DNA of 64,000 nt from a virus (taxonomy: Duplodnaviria > Caudoviricetes). Within the stretch, counting starts at the first letter, position 1. Every line of letters starts with the position of its first letter. Under the pieces are notes generated by a model. It was not told where the DNA came from. It saw only the letters and a program-made list of their open reading frames with translations, and did not search any database. This document shows positions 1 through 10,579 of the stretch, piece after piece. Position numbers and translations under genes: made by a program. The stretch is from the IMG/VR virus record IMGVR_UViG_3300042878_000198, positions 952 to 64,951 of that record; one strand, given 5' to 3'.

Positions 1-3000
1 GGCAATGTTGTCTTTGTAGAAATCATACTCTCCATTTCTTAGGAAGTCAAGATACTCTTCATTGATTTTTTCAACTCCAAAGTTTATCATTCCTCTTACT
101 CCGTTGCCAAAATTCCTGCCTACGGTGTAGCCAATAAATACGTTAGCCAATCCTCTTCCAAGCATTTGAAAGAATGACTTCTCATCTACTTCCTCTTCGT
201 CTTCCCAATCAAATGCAAGTCCAAGAGCAGCTCCAACAACACCCGCCCCCATGTTGGCAACCATAACCTGATAGATTACAGACCTAGTTGTGATGCCAGC
301 AAGTACAGCAGCAGCCTTTTGCTTAGTCATGTATCCTTCGTTGAACAAATTATAGACCGCACTTCTTGCTGCAGCATAATCAAAGTTCATAAAGTTGGTC
401 ATGAAAGAATTAAAGTTGTTCCAAGCCTTTTGTGTAAAACTTTGGTCTGGCTTTAGCTTACCCTTGAGAACTCCCATAAACTCGTTGTTAGCGGCACCTG
501 AGTATACAGACTCTTGGTCAGCCTTTCTTGTAGCCTGCTCAATTGCATCTGCATTCTTTTGCATATAATCAAGGTCATTATTAATCATCATCTCCTGATT
601 AACTTCTTCCCCTGTTATTCTTTTGAACTCATTCATAAAGCTACCAAACCAAAGAGGCATCGAAACAACCTTATCTGGAGTGGTTAGCATGGTATCTGCG
701 ATGTATTCAACAGGGTTCTGAACTAACTTTTTTAGAGTAAGATTATAAATCTGAGTTGTTCTATTTAGTAAGGCACCTTTTGATACACTGCCCTTTATGC
801 CTGATGTTTGCTTTAGTATTTGAGGGTCAACCAATTTACCAGATAGAGCATCTGAAGAGTAAAGTCTAGACGTTTGTTTTGACTTTGCGTTCTTCATGAA
901 CTCATACCCATTTGCAGAAGCAATAAGCTTTGCGTTCATAATACCTGTCCCCAAAGCCTTAGGATTTATAATTAATGCGTTAGCAATGTTGGATAATAAC
1001 TCACCCTTGAATCTAACAGTTCCTGCCAAAGCAGTTCTATATCCTTGCTTCTGAATAAAGTCAATCACTTCATTGCCAAGAGCATCCTGAGAAATGCTGT
1101 TGGTTAATATATTCTGAAGAGCCTCTTCGTATGCATTGTTAATTGCATTATTAATATCTCTCTGCTGCTTAGGAATTATCCCTGTTATTTCATTTAATTT
1201 ATTTTCATCTGTCACTCCTTTTTTCTTAGCTTCATCTCTTGCTTTTTTATCTGCTACTTTTTGAAGATTCTTTTCTGCTTGAATCAAAGTCCTTCTAGCA
1301 GTTCGAATAGGAGAGGTCATATTGTAATCCAACAACACAAACTTGGCCCCCTTTTGAGTAGATGTAAACAAGTCAAAGTTAAGTGGAGTCAAAGCGTCAG
1401 TTCGCTCAATTAAAGACTTAGCCTTTGTTGAAGGCTTCATTGATTTACTGTAGCTGTTAGAGAACTCAGGAGCAGCGGTATCATCCATAGGGCTTTGCTC
1501 GTGCAAAACATTGTGGTGAAAATAATTGTCCATCAACTCAACCTTATTACCACGTATCACAGACGCAGTATAAGCAGCTTTCTCTCCTAGAGATTCGTTG
1601 ATTTCAGTCATGACTTTAATGGCATTCTTTTCTGCGTCATTAAATGTATTGTAGAATTTGTCCAAGTCAACTTCCCCCTTTGTGGTATAGCTTTCAACTT
1701 CTTCAAGTATCTTCTCTAGCTTATCAGCATCAGCATCTTTAAACACTGAATTGCCAATTCTTATATGCTTAATAGTAGCTTTAAGATAATCAGCGACAGG
1801 CTTAACGCCTTTCTTGCCTACGTTTGACTCGTACTCACGTTGCAACATATAGGTTGTCATTCTAAACTTAGACATTAGATACTTGTCAGGGTTCTGAGTA
1901 AATGATGCCAACACTTTGTTTTGAGCGGCCTCTATTTTTTGGTCTACTCTTTTTAACTCTGAGTTAAATCTAGACAAACCCTGAGCAGACTTTTCAAATA
2001 ATGAGTTAAATATGTCTCTAGTTTTAAAGTCACCAAAGACGTTATCTATATAGTATAGAGGGTTTGCTCTTATCAATTCATCTATTGTCTTTTTAAAAGC
2101 ACCTAATTTTGAATCCTTTAACTTTTCTTTTGCTCTAGAATATAGCTTAGAGAAAGCTAAAGGCTTAGCCTTTTCTATGGAGCCAGAAAGAACCTTACCA
2201 GACTTGATAGAATTAAGTTTCTCTACAACTATTTTAGCATAATGAGGAAGATACCCGTTATTGATGTTGTTGATAACCTTGATTATGTTTTTAAGGTCAG
2301 TCAAAGAAAGATTCATCAATTCCTCTACGCTTAACTCTTTGATGAGCTTTGCTAAATTTATTGCATCTTCTTTCTCATCACGGCTAGGCAATGGGAATTC
2401 CTTGTTATCAATCTTTAGAGCCTTTAATATTTCAATTTCCTTCTTTTTATCCGCTTCAATTTCCGCATCAGTCAAATCTACTTTTTCTACTTGAGGAAGT
2501 ATCTCAGACTTGTACTTTCTCATTAGGTCTGCTTCATCTACAGTGATGGACCCTTTATCTATCATGCTCTTGATAGTTTCAGAATAGTTAAGTTCACCAT
2601 CTTCGTTAAAGACTTTGTCGTTGTAGTTATTGAATCTATCGGCAAGAGCGTCTACTGAAGAACGCTCATTCTTTATTTCATCAAGTATTTCATTGACCTG
2701 CTTTAGCACCTTGACTCTGTCAGGGATACTAAGTACTGCTTTTCTTGCGCTAAAGTCTTCTAAGATACCCAAGTACTTCTCCAATTGATTTAAAGGAATA
2801 AGTGTTGGGTTGATTGATAGCAATTGATTCAATGGCTCAAATAGGTCCTGAGCTATACCAATCTTAGTCTTGATATTTTCTTTGGCCTTTTTGATTTGAG
2901 CTAATGCAGTAGTCATTTTACCAACATACTCTGCCTTAGAGAACACCTTAGCAACGTAGTCCACAAAGTTAGATATGGATGCCTCACTCAATGGATTCAT

Positions 3001-6000
3001 CTTGAGTGCTCTAACAGTAAGGCTAGTGGCTTGATTAAGCGTAATCTTACCATCTGTACCCATCTGCTTAATCTCATCTGCCAAGAATTTATTTGCCTCA
3101 GCTATAGACTTCTTAGCTGCAACCGCACCTTCAGCAAGTTCTTTGATTCGCTTTTTAAGAACCTGTGTTTCAGTCATGGTTATCTTAGTGATATCCTTTA
3201 GCTGACCAAGTATTCTCTTTGCGGTTGGTGCTGACTTTTGTCTTAGGCCAAGCATCTTACGGACATCACGTACTAGCTTTTCTTTCTGTACGTCAGTGGC
3301 TTCTGTGTATGTTTTTGAGTTCTTGAGCTTGCTTATTACTTCTTTGGAGTCAACACCATTTATAATAAGGTTCTCAATTCTTCCCATCAAAGAATCATAA
3401 CCACTAATTGTCTCTTCAGACAATGTTATTCTTCCTGCAGCAGGGACATCTTTTGCCATCGCTTTCTTGATGTCAGCCTTAGATACACCCTTTCCTTCAA
3501 GGAATGATTTTATTACCTCCTCAGAAAATCCCTGAGCTCTTGCTTGTTGTACTACCTTCTTTGCTTTGGCCTCAGTATTTAGTTGTGACTTTGATACAGG
3601 AAATTCTTTCTTGATATTCTTAACATCCTCTTGAAGCATCAAAGGAAAGTTGTCAAACATAATTTGGTCTTCTCTTGAGAATCCTTCTGTCTCAGAAAGC
3701 AGAGTTTTTCTTCTCTGCTCTGGAGTCATCTTTGCTCTTATCTCAACATTTTTAGCCTCAACTTCACCCGATACTCTTCGATAAAGATTATACCCATCTG
3801 CTTTTTTATTTAATTTTTTAAATATATCTGCTAATATTTTCTCATCTACTTTACCACCCTTTTCCTCTATTCTATAAGTTGCCTCTTTACGTATGTATTC
3901 TTTTTCTGCCGTAGTAAACTTTTCCTTTGAAAGCTCAACCATTCTTTTGTAAGTAGCCAATACGCTCTTATAAGAATCGGTCAATTTATTTAGGTCCTCT
4001 TTTACTATAGGTGATACATATTTTTTATATAACTTAATATCTTCTTTTGTTTTATCTACTAAATTTTTAGAGATATTTACAATTACTTTCATCATTGCTT
4101 CAGCATACTTAGGGTTTGAGCCCGTCTCAAATACCTCTATATTCTGAATGTAATGCTGAATTTCATGAAGCATTGTCATCTCTGCTTCATTTTTATTTTT
4201 ATTATAAAGGTCTAAGCTTATATTTATTTTATTTTGAGAAGGAATATATTCTCCTAAATCTTCATCATCAAGCTTCTTAAATTGAACGGTTATTTTTTTA
4301 GCGTCAGGATATGCAGCGAATAAATCAGGAGCAGAAAATATATCCCCCAATATAGCTACTCTAGATTCAGCATCATTATTTTGAATATCTAATTGTTTTT
4401 TTAAATCATTAAGGTCAATGTCCTTGAACTTACCATCGGGTATTTCATATCTCCATTTACCTTCTTTTCCCTTTTCCCATCCTGTAGAGTTTCTAATAAT
4501 CTGAGGACTGATTTTATTATCATCCATAGCCTCAGCTTCAATTAATTTTCTCTTAACTGTAGCAGATAGATTAGCATTCTTGCCAATCAATTGAGCCTTT
4601 GATATTGGCATCTCTTTCTCTATAGGCTCATTAAATTCTGCAACTTTAGGAATAGAACCTGCACTTGATGACACATTCTTTTTCTCAAAATTAGGTTCAT
4701 CAGCCTTTCTTGAAACCTCTTCACCTGACTTGTTATATTTAACATAATTGTCAGTTACATTGCTTGAATTATAAAATTGAGTAGGCTGATATATGCCATT
4801 TATTTTAGCTAAAATAGACCACCCAAATGATGGGTGATGGTCTAGTGCGCCTGCTTTTGTTTGAACTATCTGAAATGTTTTGGGGTCAAATTCAACAACA
4901 TTAATTATCTCCCCCCCCTTAACACCATCATTAAGAGGGTCCATTATTCTATTAAAGAACTCCTCTTTATTTTTTATACCTATAGCTTTCTGAAACGTCT
5001 TGTCTGCAGATATAGCATTGTTTAGAGCCTTCCTTAAGTTGGGTGAGTAATTATTTTTAATATCTAGCAGGTCGACTATCTGCTTAGGATTATCCTTGAA
5101 GGAATCAAAGTTAGATATATCTTTACCTGCCTTGGTTTTAAATGCATCAAAAGCCTTTTTGTTATCCTTGTTAGAGCTAATTGTTTTATTAAAAACATCA
5201 ATCAATTCAGAGTCACTCATTATTTTTTTATCTATAATCAAGTTCACAAGTTCTGCAAACGTATGCTGCTGAAATTGCCAAGATTCAGATAATGTTCCTG
5301 AGTGTGGCGCAAACAATGACGCTTGCCCTTGTATTGCATTACGTGCAAAGGATTCCGCTTGTGCCTTATTATTGAATGCGGCTAGATTAGAAACATCGCC
5401 TATCTTCTTGTCCTGTAGAGACATCATGTATGGAACATAGTTCTTGCCGCCAAGCATATTTATAGTAAACCCATTTCCCAAGTCGGTTACACCCGCATTG
5501 GTATAGTCATACATATTCGTGACAAACTTTTTTCCGCTAAAATCTCTTATGTCAACGTCCTGAACTAAGTCTTTTATAAACGACCTACTATCATTTGCTA
5601 CACTAGGAGCATCCTTTACATCTACCCTGCTTTTTGAACCAAAGTTAAATGTACCTACCTCTCCTCCTCCGTTTAACTCTATGTCCTCTCCTTGACGAAT
5701 TGAACTAGATATGCTGTTAAAGAAATCAACCAACTGCTTGGTGTCCTTGATATCTTGGAAAGGCTTAAATGTTCCATTGGTTAATTTTGAAACCACATCA
5801 TTTATAATAGCCGCAATTTTTTGAAACGTATTGACAGATAAAGTAGCTTCCTGTTGCTCTAAAACTGCCGTTAACTCTGCAAGGTATTCTTCGTAAGAAG
5901 CATCTTCATTATAGTTCTCAGAAAATTCCATCAACATATTGTTGGAACTTTCATTTAAAACCTTAGATATCCTGTCTCTAAATGACTTGTATAGTTCAGG

Positions 6001-8715
6001 CGTACCATTAAACGCCTTAGCCATGATTGCGTGAGCAACCTCGTGAGCTACGGTACTGCTATTGGCGCTGTTTAGATTAATGTCAATACGTCCTGAGCCA
6101 TCTTTATATATGGCAAAATTGCCTCTAGAATCTTTTGCTCCACCTATCTCATCCATTGCAGTATTAAAGCTTCCCTCCTCATCGTGTAGTACGATGTCAA
6201 AGTTTGGAAGTACAGACTTTAATGTCTTTAAAACTCGTTGAGCAGATTCAATGACCTTGACTCTTTGCTTGTCAGTTGTTTTTGTTTTTATATTATCAAC
6301 TGCAGACTTGTTAGTTACAGATACCCCTTGGTTAGCAGTTGTAGTAGGAGCCTCTTCCTCTGCAAACATCTGCTCCATACTAGCCATCTGCTGTTCTTGA
6401 GTAAGTTGAGATACAGCCGGAGTAGCCTCAGTCGCTGGAGATACACTTGAAGATACAGCTGGAGATATAGTCGCCTTAGTTTTTTTAGTTTTAGAGGGAG
6501 CCACAGGCCGCATTAATACTCTTCCCTCTCCTAATTTTTGTTTAACTTTAAATCCCCTTGCCTCCAGCATTTTTTGCATTACAGGATTTACCACATCCAC
6601 TTCTGTAATTGCCTTTGGATTTTCATCTTTAATATCAGAAGGCATTTTTAATACAGCATCAAGTAAATTAGAGCCAATACCCGTGCCTTCTTGACCTTCG
6701 TCAACCACTACATCAAAAGTATACTTATATCCATCGTACGATGTAAATGCACCACCAATGACATTGCCATCAGCATCTCTTGCAACATAGGCAATCTCTC
6801 TATCTGATGTAATACCAAGGTTTCTTTTCTTAGCTATATCTTTTACCTGTTCTTCAGCGTCATAATCTATTTCACCCTCTTCAGTTATAGCACTTTCTAT
6901 TACCACCCCTTCAGGTAGTTGCTTTTTAGTTACTACTTCTTCTTGGACACCCGCTTCGGTAGTGACTTGAGGTTCTGCTTGGGGTACTCCTTGCTCCACT
7001 TCTTGGCCAACTGTGGCTCCTGACTGAACAGGTACTTCACCTGCTGCTTGCTCTTGAACGGCATCTTGTTGTATGGTTTTAGGTTTACCAATAATTTTAT
7101 AAGTAGTAGGCTGATATGGGTCATCAGGTTCTACTTCTTGTATTTGAAAATCAATCTTCTTGTATGAATTTGCAAGGTTTCCAACAATACCCTGAGCTTG
7201 CTCCTCAGTTAGTGCATCATCTGCATACTCTAAATCACCTTTAGGAGATTCAATAAAGTTATAGTCAGCACTACCATAAGATAATTTTCTAAGTTTATTC
7301 TCCTCAAGAACTTTTACAGTCTCTTTTAAAGATTCATTATTAGAATCAACCTGAGCTATCTTCTTTTCTACATCTTTAATTGATTTGTCAATCTCTTCAA
7401 TCTCCTCATCAGATGTGGCTCTAGCTCTTCTTCCTAGCAACGCTGTAAGCACACCGTTCATGATTGCGCCTACTGTACCACCTACAGCAGCAGCCTCGCC
7501 TACGCCATCTAAGAAGCCTCTAGTGGTGCCATATATAGCATCTGCTGTTACGTTCTCATATACAGCCTGAACGCCTTCAGTGATTAATTCTTCGCCACCA
7601 CCAACTACTGCTCTCTTTAATATCTCTACCCCTTTGTTACCAACTAAAACATTATCCAGTCTCTTAAATAAATTATTTACTGGTAACATCTCTAGAGGAA
7701 AGGTCATCACTGCATTTTGAATAGCAAATCCAAGTGCTTCATTTTCCGTAGCCCCTTCCAGCTTTGCTTGTTTGTATGATGGAGCGGCTACCTGTGAAAT
7801 AGTTAAAACTCCTTGAGCCGTACCTATTCTAGAGACTATATTTTTACTATAGTTAGCAACAGCCTGCATTGAAATCCCTTTCTTTCCAGCCTCCTTAGCA
7901 ATAGCCATAGCTCCTCCTGACATTCCGCCAGTAAGTATTATTGGAACCATTTCACCTAAAGCATTGGAAACCTGACCCCAAAATCCGGACTCAATGTCTT
8001 TGTCTGTTGGAATAAAATCATTTATTAAATCCTTCCACTCACTAGCAGCTTGGTAAAGATTAACATTAGCTCCCAATGGAAGATTCACATTAAGTGCAGA
8101 AGTCTCATCAACTAAACCAGTCTTTGCAACTAAGTTTGTTGCTGCAGCGGTGGCTATTGCGGCAGTCTCTAAAACCCCAGCTGGGGACTTAATAGCTCCT
8201 TTAGCCAAAACTTTACCTATCTCTCCAAATACCTTAGGAATACTCTTCCCTATAAATTCAGGAGCTCTACCCGTAGTCTTAACCCCAGAGATGCCCATTG
8301 GGCCAAACATTACCTCTTCAGTATACGGGGGTTGTGTGGGCTGGTCAGGTTGAACAGATGGTATTTGCTCAGGCAAAGGCTTTCCGGGTTGATACCCGAA
8401 CTGAGCCATCTCAGGTTCAACTGATTCGGACGAAGCCAAAGAACCAAGTGCCGAAGGTAATGCCGTAGTATCTTCTTTTTTTTTTAACTCTGCTGACATT
8501 TCAGGTTCTTGACCTGAGGCTTTTATAGGGGATACACCCATCAATATTTTATAATCGTCTATTGATTTTTTGTATCCATTCTGTACGGATAAATTATAAA
8601 TATCATTTAAAGCATTTGAATTGGTAGAAAGCAATGTCTTAAATTCATCAACTGATTTCTTGTATCCATTCTGTACCGCTAGGTTGTACGAGTCTATAAT
8701 AGCCTGTTCGTTCAT
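1..8715 (-). CDS. Giant (>2,905 aa, 3' end outside window) virion-associated/ejected large polyvalent protein with a GNAT-like domain, two zincin HExxH motifs and an LPD23-like motif
   Basis: ATG at 8715 (MNEQAIIDSYNLAVQNGYKK...) is in frame with codon 1-3 (...FYKDNIA). No stop seen in manual translation, and the ORF track lists no terminated ORF in this frame. Motifs: VVDEGQEGTGIGSNLL (~6660-6710), HEVAH (6031-6045), TGWEKGKEGKWRYEIPD (~4440-4487), HEIQH (4153-4167), GEVEAKNVE (~3745-3770). Lies after the ejection-type genes. Confidence 0.88.
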   Translation of the reverse strand, partial: MNEQAIIDSYNLAVQNGYKKSVDEFKTLLSTNSNALNDIYNLSVQNGYKKSIDDYKILMGVSPIKASGQEPEMSAELKKKEDTTALPSALGSLASSESVEPEMAQFGYQPGKPLPEQIPSVQPDQPTQPPYTEEVMFGPMGISGVKTTGRAPEFIGKSIPKVFGEIGKVLAKGAIKSPAGVLETAAIATAAATNLVAKTGLVDETSALNVNLPLGANVNLYQAASEWKDLINDFIPTDKDIESGFWGQVSNALGEMVPIILTGGMSGGAMAIAKEAGKKGISMQAVANYSKNIVSRIGTAQGVLTISQVAAPSYKQAKLEGATENEALGFAIQNAVMTFPLEMLPVNNLFKRLDNVLVGNKGVEILKRAVVGGGEELITEGVQAVYENVTADAIYGTTRGFLDGVGEAAAVGGTVGAIMNGVLTALLGRRARATSDEEIEEIDKSIKDVEKKIAQVDSNNESLKETVKVLEENKLRKLSYGSADYNFIESPKGDLEYADDALTEEQAQGIVGNLANSYKKIDFQIQEVEPDDPYQPTTYKIIGKPKTIQQDAVQEQAAGEVPVQSGATVGQEVEQGVPQAEPQVTTEAGVQEEVVTKKQLPEGVVIESAITEEGEIDYDAEEQVKDIAKKRNLGITSDREIAYVARDADGNVIGGAFTSYDGYKYTFDVVVDEGQEGTGIGSNLLDAVLKMPSDIKDENPKAITEVDVVNPVMQKMLEARGFKVKQKLGEGRVLMRPVAPSKTKKTKATISPAVSSSVSPATEATPAVSQLTQEQQMASMEQMFAEEEAPTTTANQGVSVTNKSAVDNIKTKTTDKQRVKVIESAQRVLKTLKSVLPNFDIVLHDEEGSFNTAMDEIGGAKDSRGNFAIYKDGSGRIDINLNSANSSTVAHEVAHAIMAKAFNGTPELYKSFRDRISKVLNESSNNMLMEFSENYNEDASYEEYLAELTAVLEQQEATLSVNTFQKIAAIINDVVSKLTNGTFKPFQDIKDTKQLVDFFNSISSSIRQGEDIELNGGGEVGTFNFGSKSRVDVKDAPSVANDSRSFIKDLVQDVDIRDFSGKKFVTNMYDYTNAGVTDLGNGFTINMLGGKNYVPYMMSLQDKKIGDVSNLAAFNNKAQAESFARNAIQGQASLFAPHSGTLSESWQFQQHTFAELVNLIIDKKIMSDSELIDVFNKTISSNKDNKKAFDAFKTKAGKDISNFDSFKDNPKQIVDLLDIKNNYSPNLRKALNNAISADKTFQKAIGIKNKEEFFNRIMDPLNDGVKGGEIINVVEFDPKTFQIVQTKAGALDHHPSFGWSILAKINGIYQPTQFYNSSNVTDNYVKYNKSGEEVSRKADEPNFEKKNVSSSAGSIPKVAEFNEPIEKEMPISKAQLIGKNANLSATVKRKLIEAEAMDDNKISPQIIRNSTGWEKGKEGKWRYEIPDGKFKDIDLNDLKKQLDIQNNDAESRVAILGDIFSAPDLFAAYPDAKKITVQFKKLDDEDLGEYIPSQNKINISLDLYNKNKNEAEMTMLHEIQHYIQNIEVFETGSNPKYAEAMMKVIVNISKNLVDKTKEDIKLYKKYVSPIVKEDLNKLTDSYKSVLATYKRMVELSKEKFTTAEKEYIRKEATYRIEEKGGKVDEKILADIFKKLNKKADGYNLYRRVSGEVEAKNVEIRAKMTPEQRRKTLLSETEGFSREDQIMFDNFPLMLQEDVKNIKKEFPVSKSQLNTEAKAKKVVQQARAQGFSEEVIKSFLEGKGVSKADIKKAMAKDVPAAGRITLSEETISGYDSLMGRIENLIINGVDSKEVISKLKNSKTYTEATDVQKEKLVRDVRKMLGLRQKSAPTAKRILGQLKDITKITMTETQVLKKRIKELAEGAVAAKKSIAEANKFLADEIKQMGTDGKITLNQATSLTVRALKMNPLSEASISNFVDYVAKVFSKAEYVGKMTTALAQIKKAKENIKTKIGIAQDLFEPLNQLLSINPTLIPLNQLEKYLGILEDFSARKAVLSIPDRVKVLKQVNEILDEIKNERSSVDALADRFNNYNDKVFNEDGELNYSETIKSMIDKGSITVDEADLMRKYKSEILPQVEKVDLTDAEIEADKKKEIEILKALKIDNKEFPLPSRDEKEDAINLAKLIKELSVEELMNLSLTDLKNIIKVINNINNGYLPHYAKIVVEKLNSIKSGKVLSGSIEKAKPLAFSKLYSRAKEKLKDSKLGAFKKTIDELIRANPLYYIDNVFGDFKTRDIFNSLFEKSAQGLSRFNSELKRVDQKIEAAQNKVLASFTQNPDKYLMSKFRMTTYMLQREYESNVGKKGVKPVADYLKATIKHIRIGNSVFKDADADKLEKILEEVESYTTKGEVDLDKFYNTFNDAEKNAIKVMTEINESLGEKAAYTASVIRGNKVELMDNYFHHNVLHEQSPMDDTAAPEFSNSYSKSMKPSTKAKSLIERTDALTPLNFDLFTSTQKGAKFVLLDYNMTSPIRTARRTLIQAEKNLQKVADKKARDEAKKKGVTDENKLNEITGIIPKQQRDINNAINNAYEEALQNILTNSISQDALGNEVIDFIQKQGYRTALAGTVRFKGELLSNIANALIINPKALGTGIMNAKLIASANGYEFMKNAKSKQTSRLYSSDALSGKLVDPQILKQTSGIKGSVSKGALLNRTTQIYNLTLKKLVQNPVEYIADTMLTTPDKVVSMPLWFGSFMNEFKRITGEEVNQEMMINNDLDYMQKNADAIEQATRKADQESVYSGAANNEFMGVLKGKLKPDQSFTQKAWNNFNSFMTNFMNFDYAAARSAVYNLFNEGYMTKQKAAAVLAGITTRSVIYQVMVANMGAGVVGAALGLAFDWEDEEEVDEKSFFQMLGRGLANVFIGYTVGRNFGNGVRGMINFGVEKINEEYLDFLRNGEYDFYKDNIA
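6933..7064 (-). CDS. Nested/overprinted 43-aa basic protein MPFKSKQQVKYLFSQEPQLAKKWSKEYPKQNLKSLPKRVSKKK
   Basis: Alternative frame inside the giant ORF, with an A-rich context (ATACAACAAG-ATG) like that of the giant gene (CATACAAG-ATG). Resembles the MPFKS.KQ...AKKW small phage proteins (recalled, not searched). Confidence 0.55.
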   Translation of the reverse strand: MPFKSKQQVKYLFSQEPQLAKKWSKEYPKQNLKSLPKRVSKKK

Positions 8716-8737
8716 CTTGTATGCTTGTATGTATTAA

Positions 8738-10579
8738 TTAATATCCTCCCATAACTCCACCTGTTTTTCTGCTTGTCTTAGGAAATAAGCTTAGCACAGC
8801 TTCGGCTGCCATTTCTTGTTCCTCAGCAGTTCCTCCCTTAGCATAAGTTTTAATAATAAAATCCTGCATATTTTTAAGTGCAGTTTTATTTTTAGCTGGG
8901 TCTCCTACTTTATATCCTGCTGATTCTACTCCGTTAACATCGACAAAAACATTTCCTGCTGCATTATAATCAAATTTAACTCCTGACAGTTTTGGTGAAA
9001 TAAACTTGTTAAACTGCTCTGTCAAAGCTTCTCCGCTTGTAAGCTTTTGAAGATACGGAGTTAGTTTAGGAGTCTGAATGCTTTCAGAAACAATTGTATT
9101 TAGCTCATCTAATGGGGCTTGGTCGGAAGCTTGTGCTTCAAATCCTGTAGCCTCTGTAGTCTCATTTAAAGTTGCGCCTTTTGGAAGAAAATTCTGGAAT
9201 TCTCTAATTAACACATCTTGATTTATATCATATACCCTAGCAAGAGGTCCAACAAATGATTTCACGAATGAAGTTGGGTCAGCAAGAGTCTTACCATCTG
9301 CTCTAAATTTAAATTCTTGAAGATTTCCATTTTCATCTACAATACTAAATCCATTTTTTGTTTTATTAAAATCAATTCCTGTTAATCCACTTATAAATTT
9401 AGTACCTGAATTTGATTTATTCGCATCTCCAGTAAGAGCAAATACTAAATTCTCAGCTATGTTTTTAGCATCTGCTCGTGCTTTTTGCTCAGCATCCTCT
9501 CCAGTGCTATCCGCTCTTTGTCTAGAAACCTGACCACCTTGGTCAATAGTTTCTTTTCTAGTAATCATTCCTAGTAATTGACCTGTCATCCATTTCTCGG
9601 CAGCAGCATTTTGAGTATCATTAAATTTATATTCTGCTCTACCTGTGTCAGGGTCTGTTACTTTAAGAATTAAGTTAGGGTCTTTGGCAGCAGCCTCAGG
9701 GTCTGTTGTAGTTGTATAACCCAAGGTATCTCTAAGTAAAGATGCCTTCTGTAATGGGTTAGCCATAGCTGAATTAACAGAGCTTTTCATTGATGAGTAA
9801 AACTCAAATAGCACCTCCTTAGTAGCAGGGTCAATATCATTTCTTAGTCTAAGGTCTTCTACAGAAGTAATGCTTCCAAGCTTACTCATTGTAGCTGGGT
9901 CTATTGAAGCTTGAATCTCTGTACCTAAAGTATCAGCTATGCCAACCAATGCTTCTCTAGGTTTGAACTTATCAATCCTTCCAAAGATACCACCTTGTAT
10001 GTACTGCATTCCTCTAGTACTACCACTCTTTAGACCCATTACTTTTTGACCATCAATGTCTTGCTCTTCCTTTAAGCCAACATTAACTCTGCCTGTTGGT
10101 GAATCAATAAAGAATCCTGACTGTCTAAAGTTTCCGTATCCTTGAATTTCTTCTAAGTTTTCTATTTCTAGAAGTGAAGATTTATCAGTCTTTGCTCTTT
10201 CCATTAACTCAGCATACTTAGCTTGGAATTCTTTCATTGCACCAAACGCTTGTCTGGTTCCGTCAGTTAAATTCTGACGAGCAATCATATAGTCTCTAGG
10301 GTCTAACAACCCACTCTTTAATAGCTTCTCTTGTTGAAGCATATATTTAGTTGCTTGGTCAGCAAATCTTAAAGCTTCTGTACTTCCGGGTTCATGCTCT
10401 CCTTGAGGGGCATTTGATAACTCTTCGGCATATCTACGTGTAGCCTCATCAATAGCCGCCTTCTTCTCTTCTCTTACAGCAACTTCCTGACGGAGCATAT
10501 CCGTCATATCCTTGCCTATCTCAGCCCAATTGACCTGAGATTCAGCACTACGTTCAGCGTATTTATAAAATGTAGCCAT
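8738..10579 (-). CDS. Putative internal virion/ejection protein (613 aa)
   Basis: Long helical ORF between the pilot-like gene and the giant protein, the usual podovirus order. Confidence 0.6.
   Translation of the reverse strand: MATFYKYAERSAESQVNWAEIGKDMTDMLRQEVAVREEKKAAIDEATRRYAEELSNAPQGEHEPGSTEALRFADQATKYMLQQEKLLKSGLLDPRDYMIARQNLTDGTRQAFGAMKEFQAKYAELMERAKTDKSSLLEIENLEEIQGYGNFRQSGFFIDSPTGRVNVGLKEEQDIDGQKVMGLKSGSTRGMQYIQGGIFGRIDKFKPREALVGIADTLGTEIQASIDPATMSKLGSITSVEDLRLRNDIDPATKEVLFEFYSSMKSSVNSAMANPLQKASLLRDTLGYTTTTDPEAAAKDPNLILKVTDPDTGRAEYKFNDTQNAAAEKWMTGQLLGMITRKETIDQGGQVSRQRADSTGEDAEQKARADAKNIAENLVFALTGDANKSNSGTKFISGLTGIDFNKTKNGFSIVDENGNLQEFKFRADGKTLADPTSFVKSFVGPLARVYDINQDVLIREFQNFLPKGATLNETTEATGFEAQASDQAPLDELNTIVSESIQTPKLTPYLQKLTSGEALTEQFNKFISPKLSGVKFDYNAAGNVFVDVNGVESAGYKVGDPAKNKTALKNMQDFIIKTYAKGGTAEEQEMAAEAVLSLFPKTSRKTGGVMGGY

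Follow-up and report, generated by a model that had tools for sequence, protein, structure and literature searches.

Evidence for a conserved microprotein gene nested out of frame in the gene of a giant phage protein

Can an open reading frame (ORF) of 43 codons, lying wholly out of frame inside the gene of a giant phage protein, be a gene in its own right? The question is raised by a 64,000-nucleotide stretch of DNA, called the window hereafter, which corresponds to bases 952–64951 of a 64,951-bp virus record rated complete (IMG/VR record IMGVR_UViG_3300042878_000198). For tailed phages, the nested genes known to us amount to a few textbook examples, and they are disallowed by standard gene callers. 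The conservation of the small frame, the selection acting on it, the features of its start and the distribution of its family make it highly probable that window positions 7064–6933 are a true coding gene, which occupies the +1 frame inside the gene of a giant virion-associated polyvalent protein. The features concerned are the following.

6933–7064, minus strand: nested microprotein gene, 43 codons and a TAG stop in the +1 frame of the giant gene; member of the MPFKS/phrog_1375 family.
1–8715, minus strand: giant host gene, 2905 codons visible, continuing past the window start; mosaic, polyvalent-type, virion-associated protein.
6930–7065, minus strand: host-frame linker rich in E, Q, V, A, G, T and P (host residues ~551–596), overlapping the nested gene.

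An earlier note on this DNA had described a lysine-rich ORF of 43 residues, in a shifted frame on the strand of the giant gene, and its coordinates, strand and frame are confirmed. The ATG lies at window positions 7064–7062 and the TAG at 6935–6933 of the minus strand, which is also that of the giant open frame. The ATG is made of bases 2 and 3 of host codon 551 (GAT) and base 1 of codon 552, which places the nested ORF in the +1 frame. The Lys-rich peptide begins with MPFKS, and the end of the ORF reads AAG AAG AAG TAG. Two further descriptions in the earlier note also hold: the host frame across the nested ORF reads DAVQEQAAGEVPVQSG..., an acidic linker, and the giant gene and the nested ORF have similar start contexts, with ...CATACAA(CA)AG-ATG in common. 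From stop to stop, the small frame allows an earlier start, an ATG at 7124 giving 63 residues. Since the upstream extension of the small frame differs between relatives, in which it measures 0 to 81 nucleotides (nt), the MPFKS ATG is taken to be the conserved start. A chance match had been considered unlikely, and this is upheld by the comparative conservation of the peptide, though not by the length of the ORF. Other same-strand ORFs of 36–43 residues are present in alternative frames between positions 6000 and 8000, and the length of the nested ORF by itself is within chance expectation; the signal beyond chance lies in the comparative data.

Conservation of the nested frame and selection on it

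Relatives were collected in two ways. A first retrieval, based on the peptide through back-translated motifs, gave 382 IMG/VR loci confirmed by tblastn, and 80 of the 382 were examined. All 78 loci of this set that have the exact N-terminal motif also have a giant ORF running over the small one, always in the same relative frame. The small ORF is intact in 71 of the 72 unique sequences, that of locus L003 being truncated, and the host protein on either side of this conserved island cannot be aligned between many loci. A peptide search also gave ten called proteins of 40–46 residues, with 67–93% identity. The second retrieval was independent of the peptide and relied on a distant part of the giant protein.

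2536–3318, minus strand: core part of the host gene (residues 1800–2060), used as peptide-independent probe for relatives.

With alignment A3 of this core, 159 loci were confirmed. The best 80 of them (37–89% identity) were scanned in all six frames with a hidden Markov model of the family, built from 119 called proteins. The nested gene is kept in most of the giant-gene relatives sampled in this way: 64 of the 80 loci have a family member nested in the giant ORF, and each of the 64 lies in the +1 frame, starts with an ATG and has a stop-free small frame. These copies lie 374–970 codons from the start of the giant ORF and 308–6410 nt before the core. In five loci (L104, L158, L160, L162, L164), the family member is a separate ORF 2–10 nt after the giant stop, and in one (L143) the giant ORF is split. 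No family member was found in ten loci, of which five are cut at the 5′ end and one (L141) holds a decayed remnant. When the giant protein of the window was used in tblastn, the island segment was matched in 63 of the 80 loci of the peptide-based set, and the neighbouring N-terminal segments in 4–22.

Three sub-types of the peptide are distinguished: type A, that of the window; type B, with two cysteines, also present in phages of the genus Elemovirus; and type C, which occurs both nested and stand-alone. The motif of the window sub-type, QQVKYLFSQ.P.LAKKW, was seen in this analysis in nested form only. A quick, unrooted maximum-likelihood tree of the core was computed with 67 of the 80 rows, 13 being dropped as identical or too short. 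The five loci with a downstream copy form one group in this tree (support 87), and types A and B force at least 8 and at least 6 changes, respectively. This incongruence means that the island and the N-terminal modules recombine independently of the core.

Some individual loci deserve a description. In L143 (8074–9913), the giant ORF is broken between island and core, and some 613 codons separate the nested gene from the start of the core-bearing ORF; the break could be genuine, a frameshift or an assembly error. The remnant in L141 (8058–8147) lies in an intact giant ORF, where the C-terminal half and the upstream context are recognisable, the N-terminal half is gone and the host frame is open; this locus falls in a clade of type A carriers. 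Flavobacterium phage elemoC_14-1A (L081) has, at ~8605–8640, a second, truncated island start 396 nt upstream of the intact nested gene (9001–9126), with the same N-terminal motif but only 10 codons before a stop. DAVQKQ is again the reading of the host frame at this place, and this second copy may be the remnant of a duplicated island.

Substitutions were counted on a minimum spanning tree of the unique core-retrieved sequences and classified in both frames.

Type A: 24 unique sequences, 236 substitutions; 161 synonymous in the small frame and nonsynonymous in the host frame, 20 the reverse; neutral expected fractions 0.194 versus 0.254.
Type B: 23 unique sequences, 238 substitutions; 120 synonymous in the small frame and nonsynonymous in the host frame, 27 the reverse; neutral expected fractions 0.165 versus 0.238.

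Under neutrality, the ratio between these two classes is expected to be about 0.7–0.8:1 (~0.76:1 for type A), whereas the observed ratios are 161:20 and 120:27. This is a 6- to 10-fold bias towards sparing the small protein at the cost of the host protein. The changes in type B that are synonymous in both frames suggest that the host segment is near neutral at the amino-acid level. Nucleotide diversity at small-frame positions 1, 2 and 3 is 0.137, 0.055 and 0.326 in the 70 unique islands of the peptide-based set. The host third positions are the least variable across the island, which is the opposite of what coding in the host frame alone predicts.

The nested copies also differ from stand-alone members of the family. 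All 52 unique nested copies leave the host frame open, as against 7 of 50 stand-alone copies, and at least one of these seven (L205) is really nested in another host. The codon of Phe-3 is TTC in 52 of 52 nested copies versus 21 of 50 stand-alone copies; it is always TTC when nested because TTT followed by AAR would create a TAA in the host frame. The proportion of T at small-frame third positions is 3% in nested and 19% in stand-alone copies, and the nested genomes are the more AT-rich ones, with a flank G+C of 0.38 versus 0.48. As the third positions of the small frame are the first positions of host codons, the lack of T there excludes host stops and yields more G-initial codons. The overlapping part of the host linker contains 17% E, 15% Q, 11% V, 10% A and 10% G. 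The island is a local G+C peak, with 0.50–0.55 against ~0.36 in the flanks, and could be mistaken for foreign DNA in a composition scan. Both the amino-acid composition of the linker and the local G+C peak result from the avoidance of stops in the host frame, and the acidic linker is a by-product of reading the small gene out of frame under this restriction. Strong purifying selection acts on the small frame; the host frame is merely kept open, with a weak constraint on its amino acids. The locus is a clean natural case of asymmetric dual coding, with measurable effects on codon choice, G+C content and the composition of the host protein.

The microprotein family

The earlier note had placed MPFKS proteins as stand-alone genes in many environmental phages. 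Such homologues were found, and they are widespread. The profile of alignment A2, which includes stand-alone examples, matched 603 called proteins at E ≤ 1e-3, and an exhaustive search with the profile of alignment A4 gave 4,701 clusters at E ≤ 1e-3, 851 of them at E ≤ 1e-10. In 137 of the 150 family matches listed, the match begins at residues 1–3. About 57 of the 150 listed representatives are longer than 100 residues, up to 980, so that the module also heads longer proteins; in-frame examples have 980, 498 and 1225 residues, and some long members carry Gly-rich hydrophobic segments or DUF5661. The conserved positions in alignments A1, A2 and A4 are M1, P2, (F/Y)3, K4, S5, Q8, P17 and LP36, followed by a basic tail, and all are present in the window peptide, which matches the whole ~45-residue module profile at its extreme N-terminus and begins with Met then Pro. 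In the whole 64,951-bp phage record, the nested copy is the only one (profile match of its own genome, E = 1.8e-20).

The one PHROG that the family has is phrog_1375, to which no function is assigned: 14 of 44 family members match it at E ≤ 1e-3 (best 3.7e-7), and the window peptide alone does so with E = 0.0045. The family shares with phrog_1375 and related phage hypothetical proteins of 40–60 residues, such as gp48 of Streptomyces phage Vorvolakos, the MP(F/Y)KS start, Q8, P17, an aromatic residue at 23, the LP motif and the basic tail. The difference is that those are free-standing genes, whereas the window copy is wholly nested in the +1 frame. Vorvolakos gp48, for example, stands alone beside a holin gene. 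In Synechococcus phage S-CBS2 (L083, 2501–2608), a family member of 36 codons occupies the unannotated gap between gp045 and gp046. The earlier note had counted a lack of stand-alone homologues, or stops in the alternative frame of related giant genes, as grounds against its proposal of true dual coding or capture of a small gene. Neither applies, and the proposal is supported by the purifying selection on the small frame, the merely open host frame and the stand-alone homologues themselves.

A further scan, with stand-alone types as seeds, covered 80 loci, of which 46 have a stand-alone copy, 30 a nested one, invariably in the same relative frame, and 4 an in-frame N-terminal one. A stand-alone copy is often directly adjacent to the stop of the gene before it. 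Ten of these preceding genes were checked: two are tail-fibre-like, one is portal-like and one TerL-like. About ten of the nested loci have small hosts. Among them are five loci (L215, L225, L231, L240, L205; alignment A6) in which the family member is nested near residue 58 of a protein family of ~405 residues with no assigned function. In L173, a family member is nested near residue 60 of a 678-residue ORF with similarity to TerL, again in the same relative frame. In the ~405-residue and TerL-like hosts, the host frame again reads ...NAVQE... at the nested copy.

The AlphaFold (AF2) model of the window peptide is all-helical, a two-helix hairpin of residues 6–15 and 17–26, with a predicted local distance difference test (pLDDT) score of 87. 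A fold search of the PDB with this model gave no match at E ≤ 0.001, and the fold matches in BFVD (probability 1.0) are uncharacterised phage proteins of the same family only. In Pfam, the window peptide has no match at E ≤ 10, and the 44 family members have chance matches only (E 0.07–0.28). Annotation of 10 + 10 long family members with PHROG and Pfam returned DUF5661 in two, a weak AAA match in one and phrog_1375 itself, without a functional clue. Apart from one lead, the ESM Atlas returned viral clusters without names. In the literature searched, MPFKS and phrog_1375 brought up unrelated papers only.

Several candidate identities were rejected. The PDB profile matches are designer propeller repeats that sum many tiny per-repeat scores and were judged spurious. 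DUF3008 (PF11450), a family of small basic proteins, was considered for a likeness at the N-terminal start and for the weak ESM Atlas lead (score 0.86, 15% of the members of one cluster), and 0 of 44 members match it at E ≤ 1. For the Bacteroidia ribosomal protein bL38 (DUF4295), compared with the description given in the available text of PMC11851116, there is no DUF4295 match, and the peptide model is all-helical rather than a β-hairpin.

The distribution of the family also bears on its origin. At least two other hosts (the TerL-like ORF of L173 and the ~405-residue family) contain copies, again in the same relative frame, copies also adjoin unrelated structural genes (tail fibre, portal, TerL), the island type is shuffled relative to the host core, and losses occur. 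All this would suit a selfish or mobile cassette that inserts into late genes or recombines between them, and that is expressed but merely tolerated. This explanation is nonetheless improbable. A peptide of 43 residues cannot encode a mobility function, and strong purifying selection over deep divergence indicates a protein that is useful to the phage. The cassette explanation moreover concerns the origin of the gene more than its reality, and partly overlaps the one preferred here, a genuine nested gene.

Initiation, expression and polarity of the overlap

The nested start is preceded by a segment that stands out from its surroundings.

7065–7094, minus strand: A-rich segment without a Shine-Dalgarno sequence, the putative region of translation initiation for the nested gene.

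In the window, A is found at −2, −3, −5, −6, −8, −10 and −13 to −16 relative to the nested ATG. Conservation and a high A content mark the 30 nt upstream of the ATG in the 52 unique nested loci, even where the host protein is unrelated, with A frequencies of 88% at −3, 96% at −5, 88% at −6 and 80, 80 and 84% at −11, −12 and −13. The mean folding energy of 40-nt segments in 55 loci is about −0.6 kcal/mol when they are centred on −20 to −5, versus −4.1 kcal/mol overall. The 35 long ORF starts in the window likewise have no Shine-Dalgarno motif; they are A-rich upstream, with peaks at −5 and −13/−14. According to the available text of a study of Flavobacterium johnsoniae by ribosome profiling and reporters (PMC6847099), A at −3, −6, −12 and −13 and weak structure favour initiation. 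The features of the nested start would match, as indirect evidence, what is expected of a genuine internal start in a Bacteroidia host.

These features also bear on programmed ribosomal frameshifting, by which the +1 frame would be reached without a start of its own. Either a +1 shift from the host frame would produce the 550 N-terminal residues with a basic tail, or ribosomes starting at the nested AUG would make a −1 shift back and produce an MPFKS-headed C-terminal giant protein, which would mimic the in-frame long architectures. Long in-frame proteins with the N-terminal module do exist, as listed above, and the peptide has a Lys-rich tail, of a kind that is slippery in some sequences. However, the ATG of 64 of 64 nested copies, its conserved initiation-type context and the unstructured segment around it would not be needed for a +1 product. 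In addition, no X XXY YYZ heptamer was seen by eye in the window ORF, the length and sequence of the tail differ widely among relatives, and stand-alone homologues end at the same point with no downstream frame, which together make frameshifting very improbable. Least credible is that the ORF is incidental to a nucleic-acid element, for example an internal promoter, an RNA structure, a recombination hotspot or a junction of modules in the mosaic gene. The place of the island between non-homologous host modules, its G+C content and the incongruence of its sub-types with the quick core tree (at least 8 forced changes for type A, at least 6 for type B), which fits recombination around the island, would agree with this, but variation is concentrated at small-frame third positions with a 6- to 10-fold excess of small-synonymous changes, the peptides are recognisable at 40–50% identity with very different DNA, including stand-alone genes of actinophages and cyanophages, and 64 of 64 nested copies have the ATG and a stop-free small frame.

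A genuine nested gene is therefore the reading retained, with several points weighing against it. We infer translation of the nested ORF from its conservation and its initiation-site features, and neither Pfam, the PDB nor annotated structures gave a functional clue for the family. Five relatives that are complete at the 5′ end have no intact gene (L106, L136, L137, L152 and the remnant of L141), and the nested gene is therefore dispensable in some lineages. The first retrieval was biased towards conserved peptides, which was remedied by the host-core retrieval, and the census based on the latter covers half of its confirmed loci (the best 80 of 159). Substitutions were counted on a spanning tree rather than a proper phylogeny, codons with multiple hits were treated one base at a time, and the changes synonymous in both frames (0–9 events) are too few for an absolute omega.

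If the gene is expressed as proposed, ribosomes would most likely initiate at the internal AUG of the late mRNA that also serves the giant gene, using the conserved, unstructured, A-rich initiation region of the Bacteroidia kind, free of Shine-Dalgarno sequence. The product would be a free basic protein of 43 residues that begins with the MPFKS motif, forms a two-helix hairpin and ends in a Lys-rich tail. The host frame of the same DNA gives an acidic low-complexity linker on which selection acts mainly against stops, and stop avoidance holds the third codon positions of the small gene to G or C and all but bars T from them. The host reading itself may have arisen by gene fusion, extension or recombination of late genes. 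The family reaches far beyond the giant-gene lineage, and the parts of the host protein on either side of the island are mosaic; of the two partners, the small gene is therefore probably the more ancient, with the host reading the later arrival. Since the family module is almost always at the very N-terminus, a free N-terminus may be needed, which may be why the gene is a separate out-of-frame cistron rather than an in-frame fusion. As to function, the context of structural modules, the basic tail and co-expression with a giant virion protein lead us to a guess that is offered tentatively: a virion- or morphogenesis-associated basic microprotein, needing its free N-terminus and made together with the giant protein. 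The two roles suggested in the earlier note, a partner for the acidic linker or DNA condensation, are speculative.

The evidence is evenly balanced on a wider reading taken as a whole. In that reading, an ancient and widespread microprotein (more than 4,700 clusters) would have been swallowed repeatedly, out of frame, by neighbouring late genes, a 'reverse overprinting' missed by gene callers. The hosts would be giant virion or polyvalent proteins, the TerL-like ORF and the ~405-residue family, with the small frame selected and the host linker a throw-away. Aquatic Bacteroidota phages would commonly have a virion or morphogenesis factor that current annotation lacks, and the absence of internal in-frame fusions would follow from a strict requirement that the MPFKS N-terminus be free.

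Same-strand nested gene pairs of phages include Rz/Rz1 of lambda and 18.5/18.7 of T7, which are spanin genes, and A/B and D/E of phiX174. Like them, the present case has a small gene with a start of its own that is completely contained in a larger gene of the same strand and read in the +1 frame. It differs in that the host encodes a virion protein of ~3,000 residues and not a lysis protein, and in that the embedded partner is widespread and probably older, with the host frame across it a linker under little constraint. An Rz1-like outer-membrane spanin was considered and rejected, the window product being without a lipobox Cys or a signal peptide; the window peptide and its type A relatives contain no Cys and no hydrophobic leader.

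Overprinting and de novo overlapping genes in viruses are treated in reviews (PMC8227390, PMC3494269). As far as the available text of these goes, the present locus shares with viral overprinting the maintenance of both open frames, an asymmetric constraint and a compositional distortion in the overlap. Classically, overprinting creates a new small ORF within an old gene, whereas here the evidence points to a large ORF that came to read through an older small gene. This suggests that the usual polarity of overprinting can be reversed.

The giant host gene and its setting

The giant protein contains an LPD23 domain (41.7 bits, E = 9.8e-11, Pfam cutoff 27), together with weak matches to SprT-like zincins and to GNAT acetyltransferases.

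6550–6810, minus strand: GNAT-like acetyltransferase segment (residues 636–722), directly downstream of the linker; below Pfam cutoffs.

The concept of polyvalent proteins, which carry LPD domains and occur in phages and conjugative elements, was reportedly put forward by Iyer et al. in 2017. The giant protein is a very large, multi-domain phage protein with an LPD domain, LPD23, and resembles polyvalent proteins further in its weak SprT-like and GNAT segments and in modules shuffled between relatives. It is strongly mosaic. The N-terminal ~1,700 residues, with the GNAT-like and LPD23/SprT-like parts, are common to just 4–22 of 80 peptide-retrieved relatives, the GNAT-like segment to 6–8 of them, and residues ~1750–2900 to up to 50 of the 80 (tblastn). 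No description of a conserved gene nested out of frame in a polyvalent protein was found in the literature searched, in which overprinting and nested phage genes brought up general papers.

The giant protein belongs to phrog_32588, a PHROG with no assigned function, and its gene adjoins virion structural genes. The closest cultured relatives of the phage are Flavobacterium podophages of ~60 kb, of the genus Elemovirus, whose giant homologue of 3694 residues is annotated 'structural protein'. The designation of the host as a giant virion-associated polyvalent protein is justified on these grounds. 'Ejection protein', the term of the earlier note, is presumptive, and is supported by the Elemovirus annotation and the structural neighbour genes. 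No proteomics data on Elemovirus phages were found in the literature searched, including the available text of PMC7077304. The cultured phages are a tractable system, in which a knockout of the nested start codon can be silent in the host frame, and the link to structural modules makes the microprotein family a target for experiments. Among the best 40 of 73 GenBank matches listed, the giant gene is the only one annotated at the matching position, the nested gene in none.

The runs listed as containing window positions 5500–8800 are DNA runs labelled lake water or freshwater metagenome, with no RNA run among them. For such a lake-water phage, the A-rich starts free of Shine-Dalgarno motifs found across the window are consistent with a Bacteroidota host.

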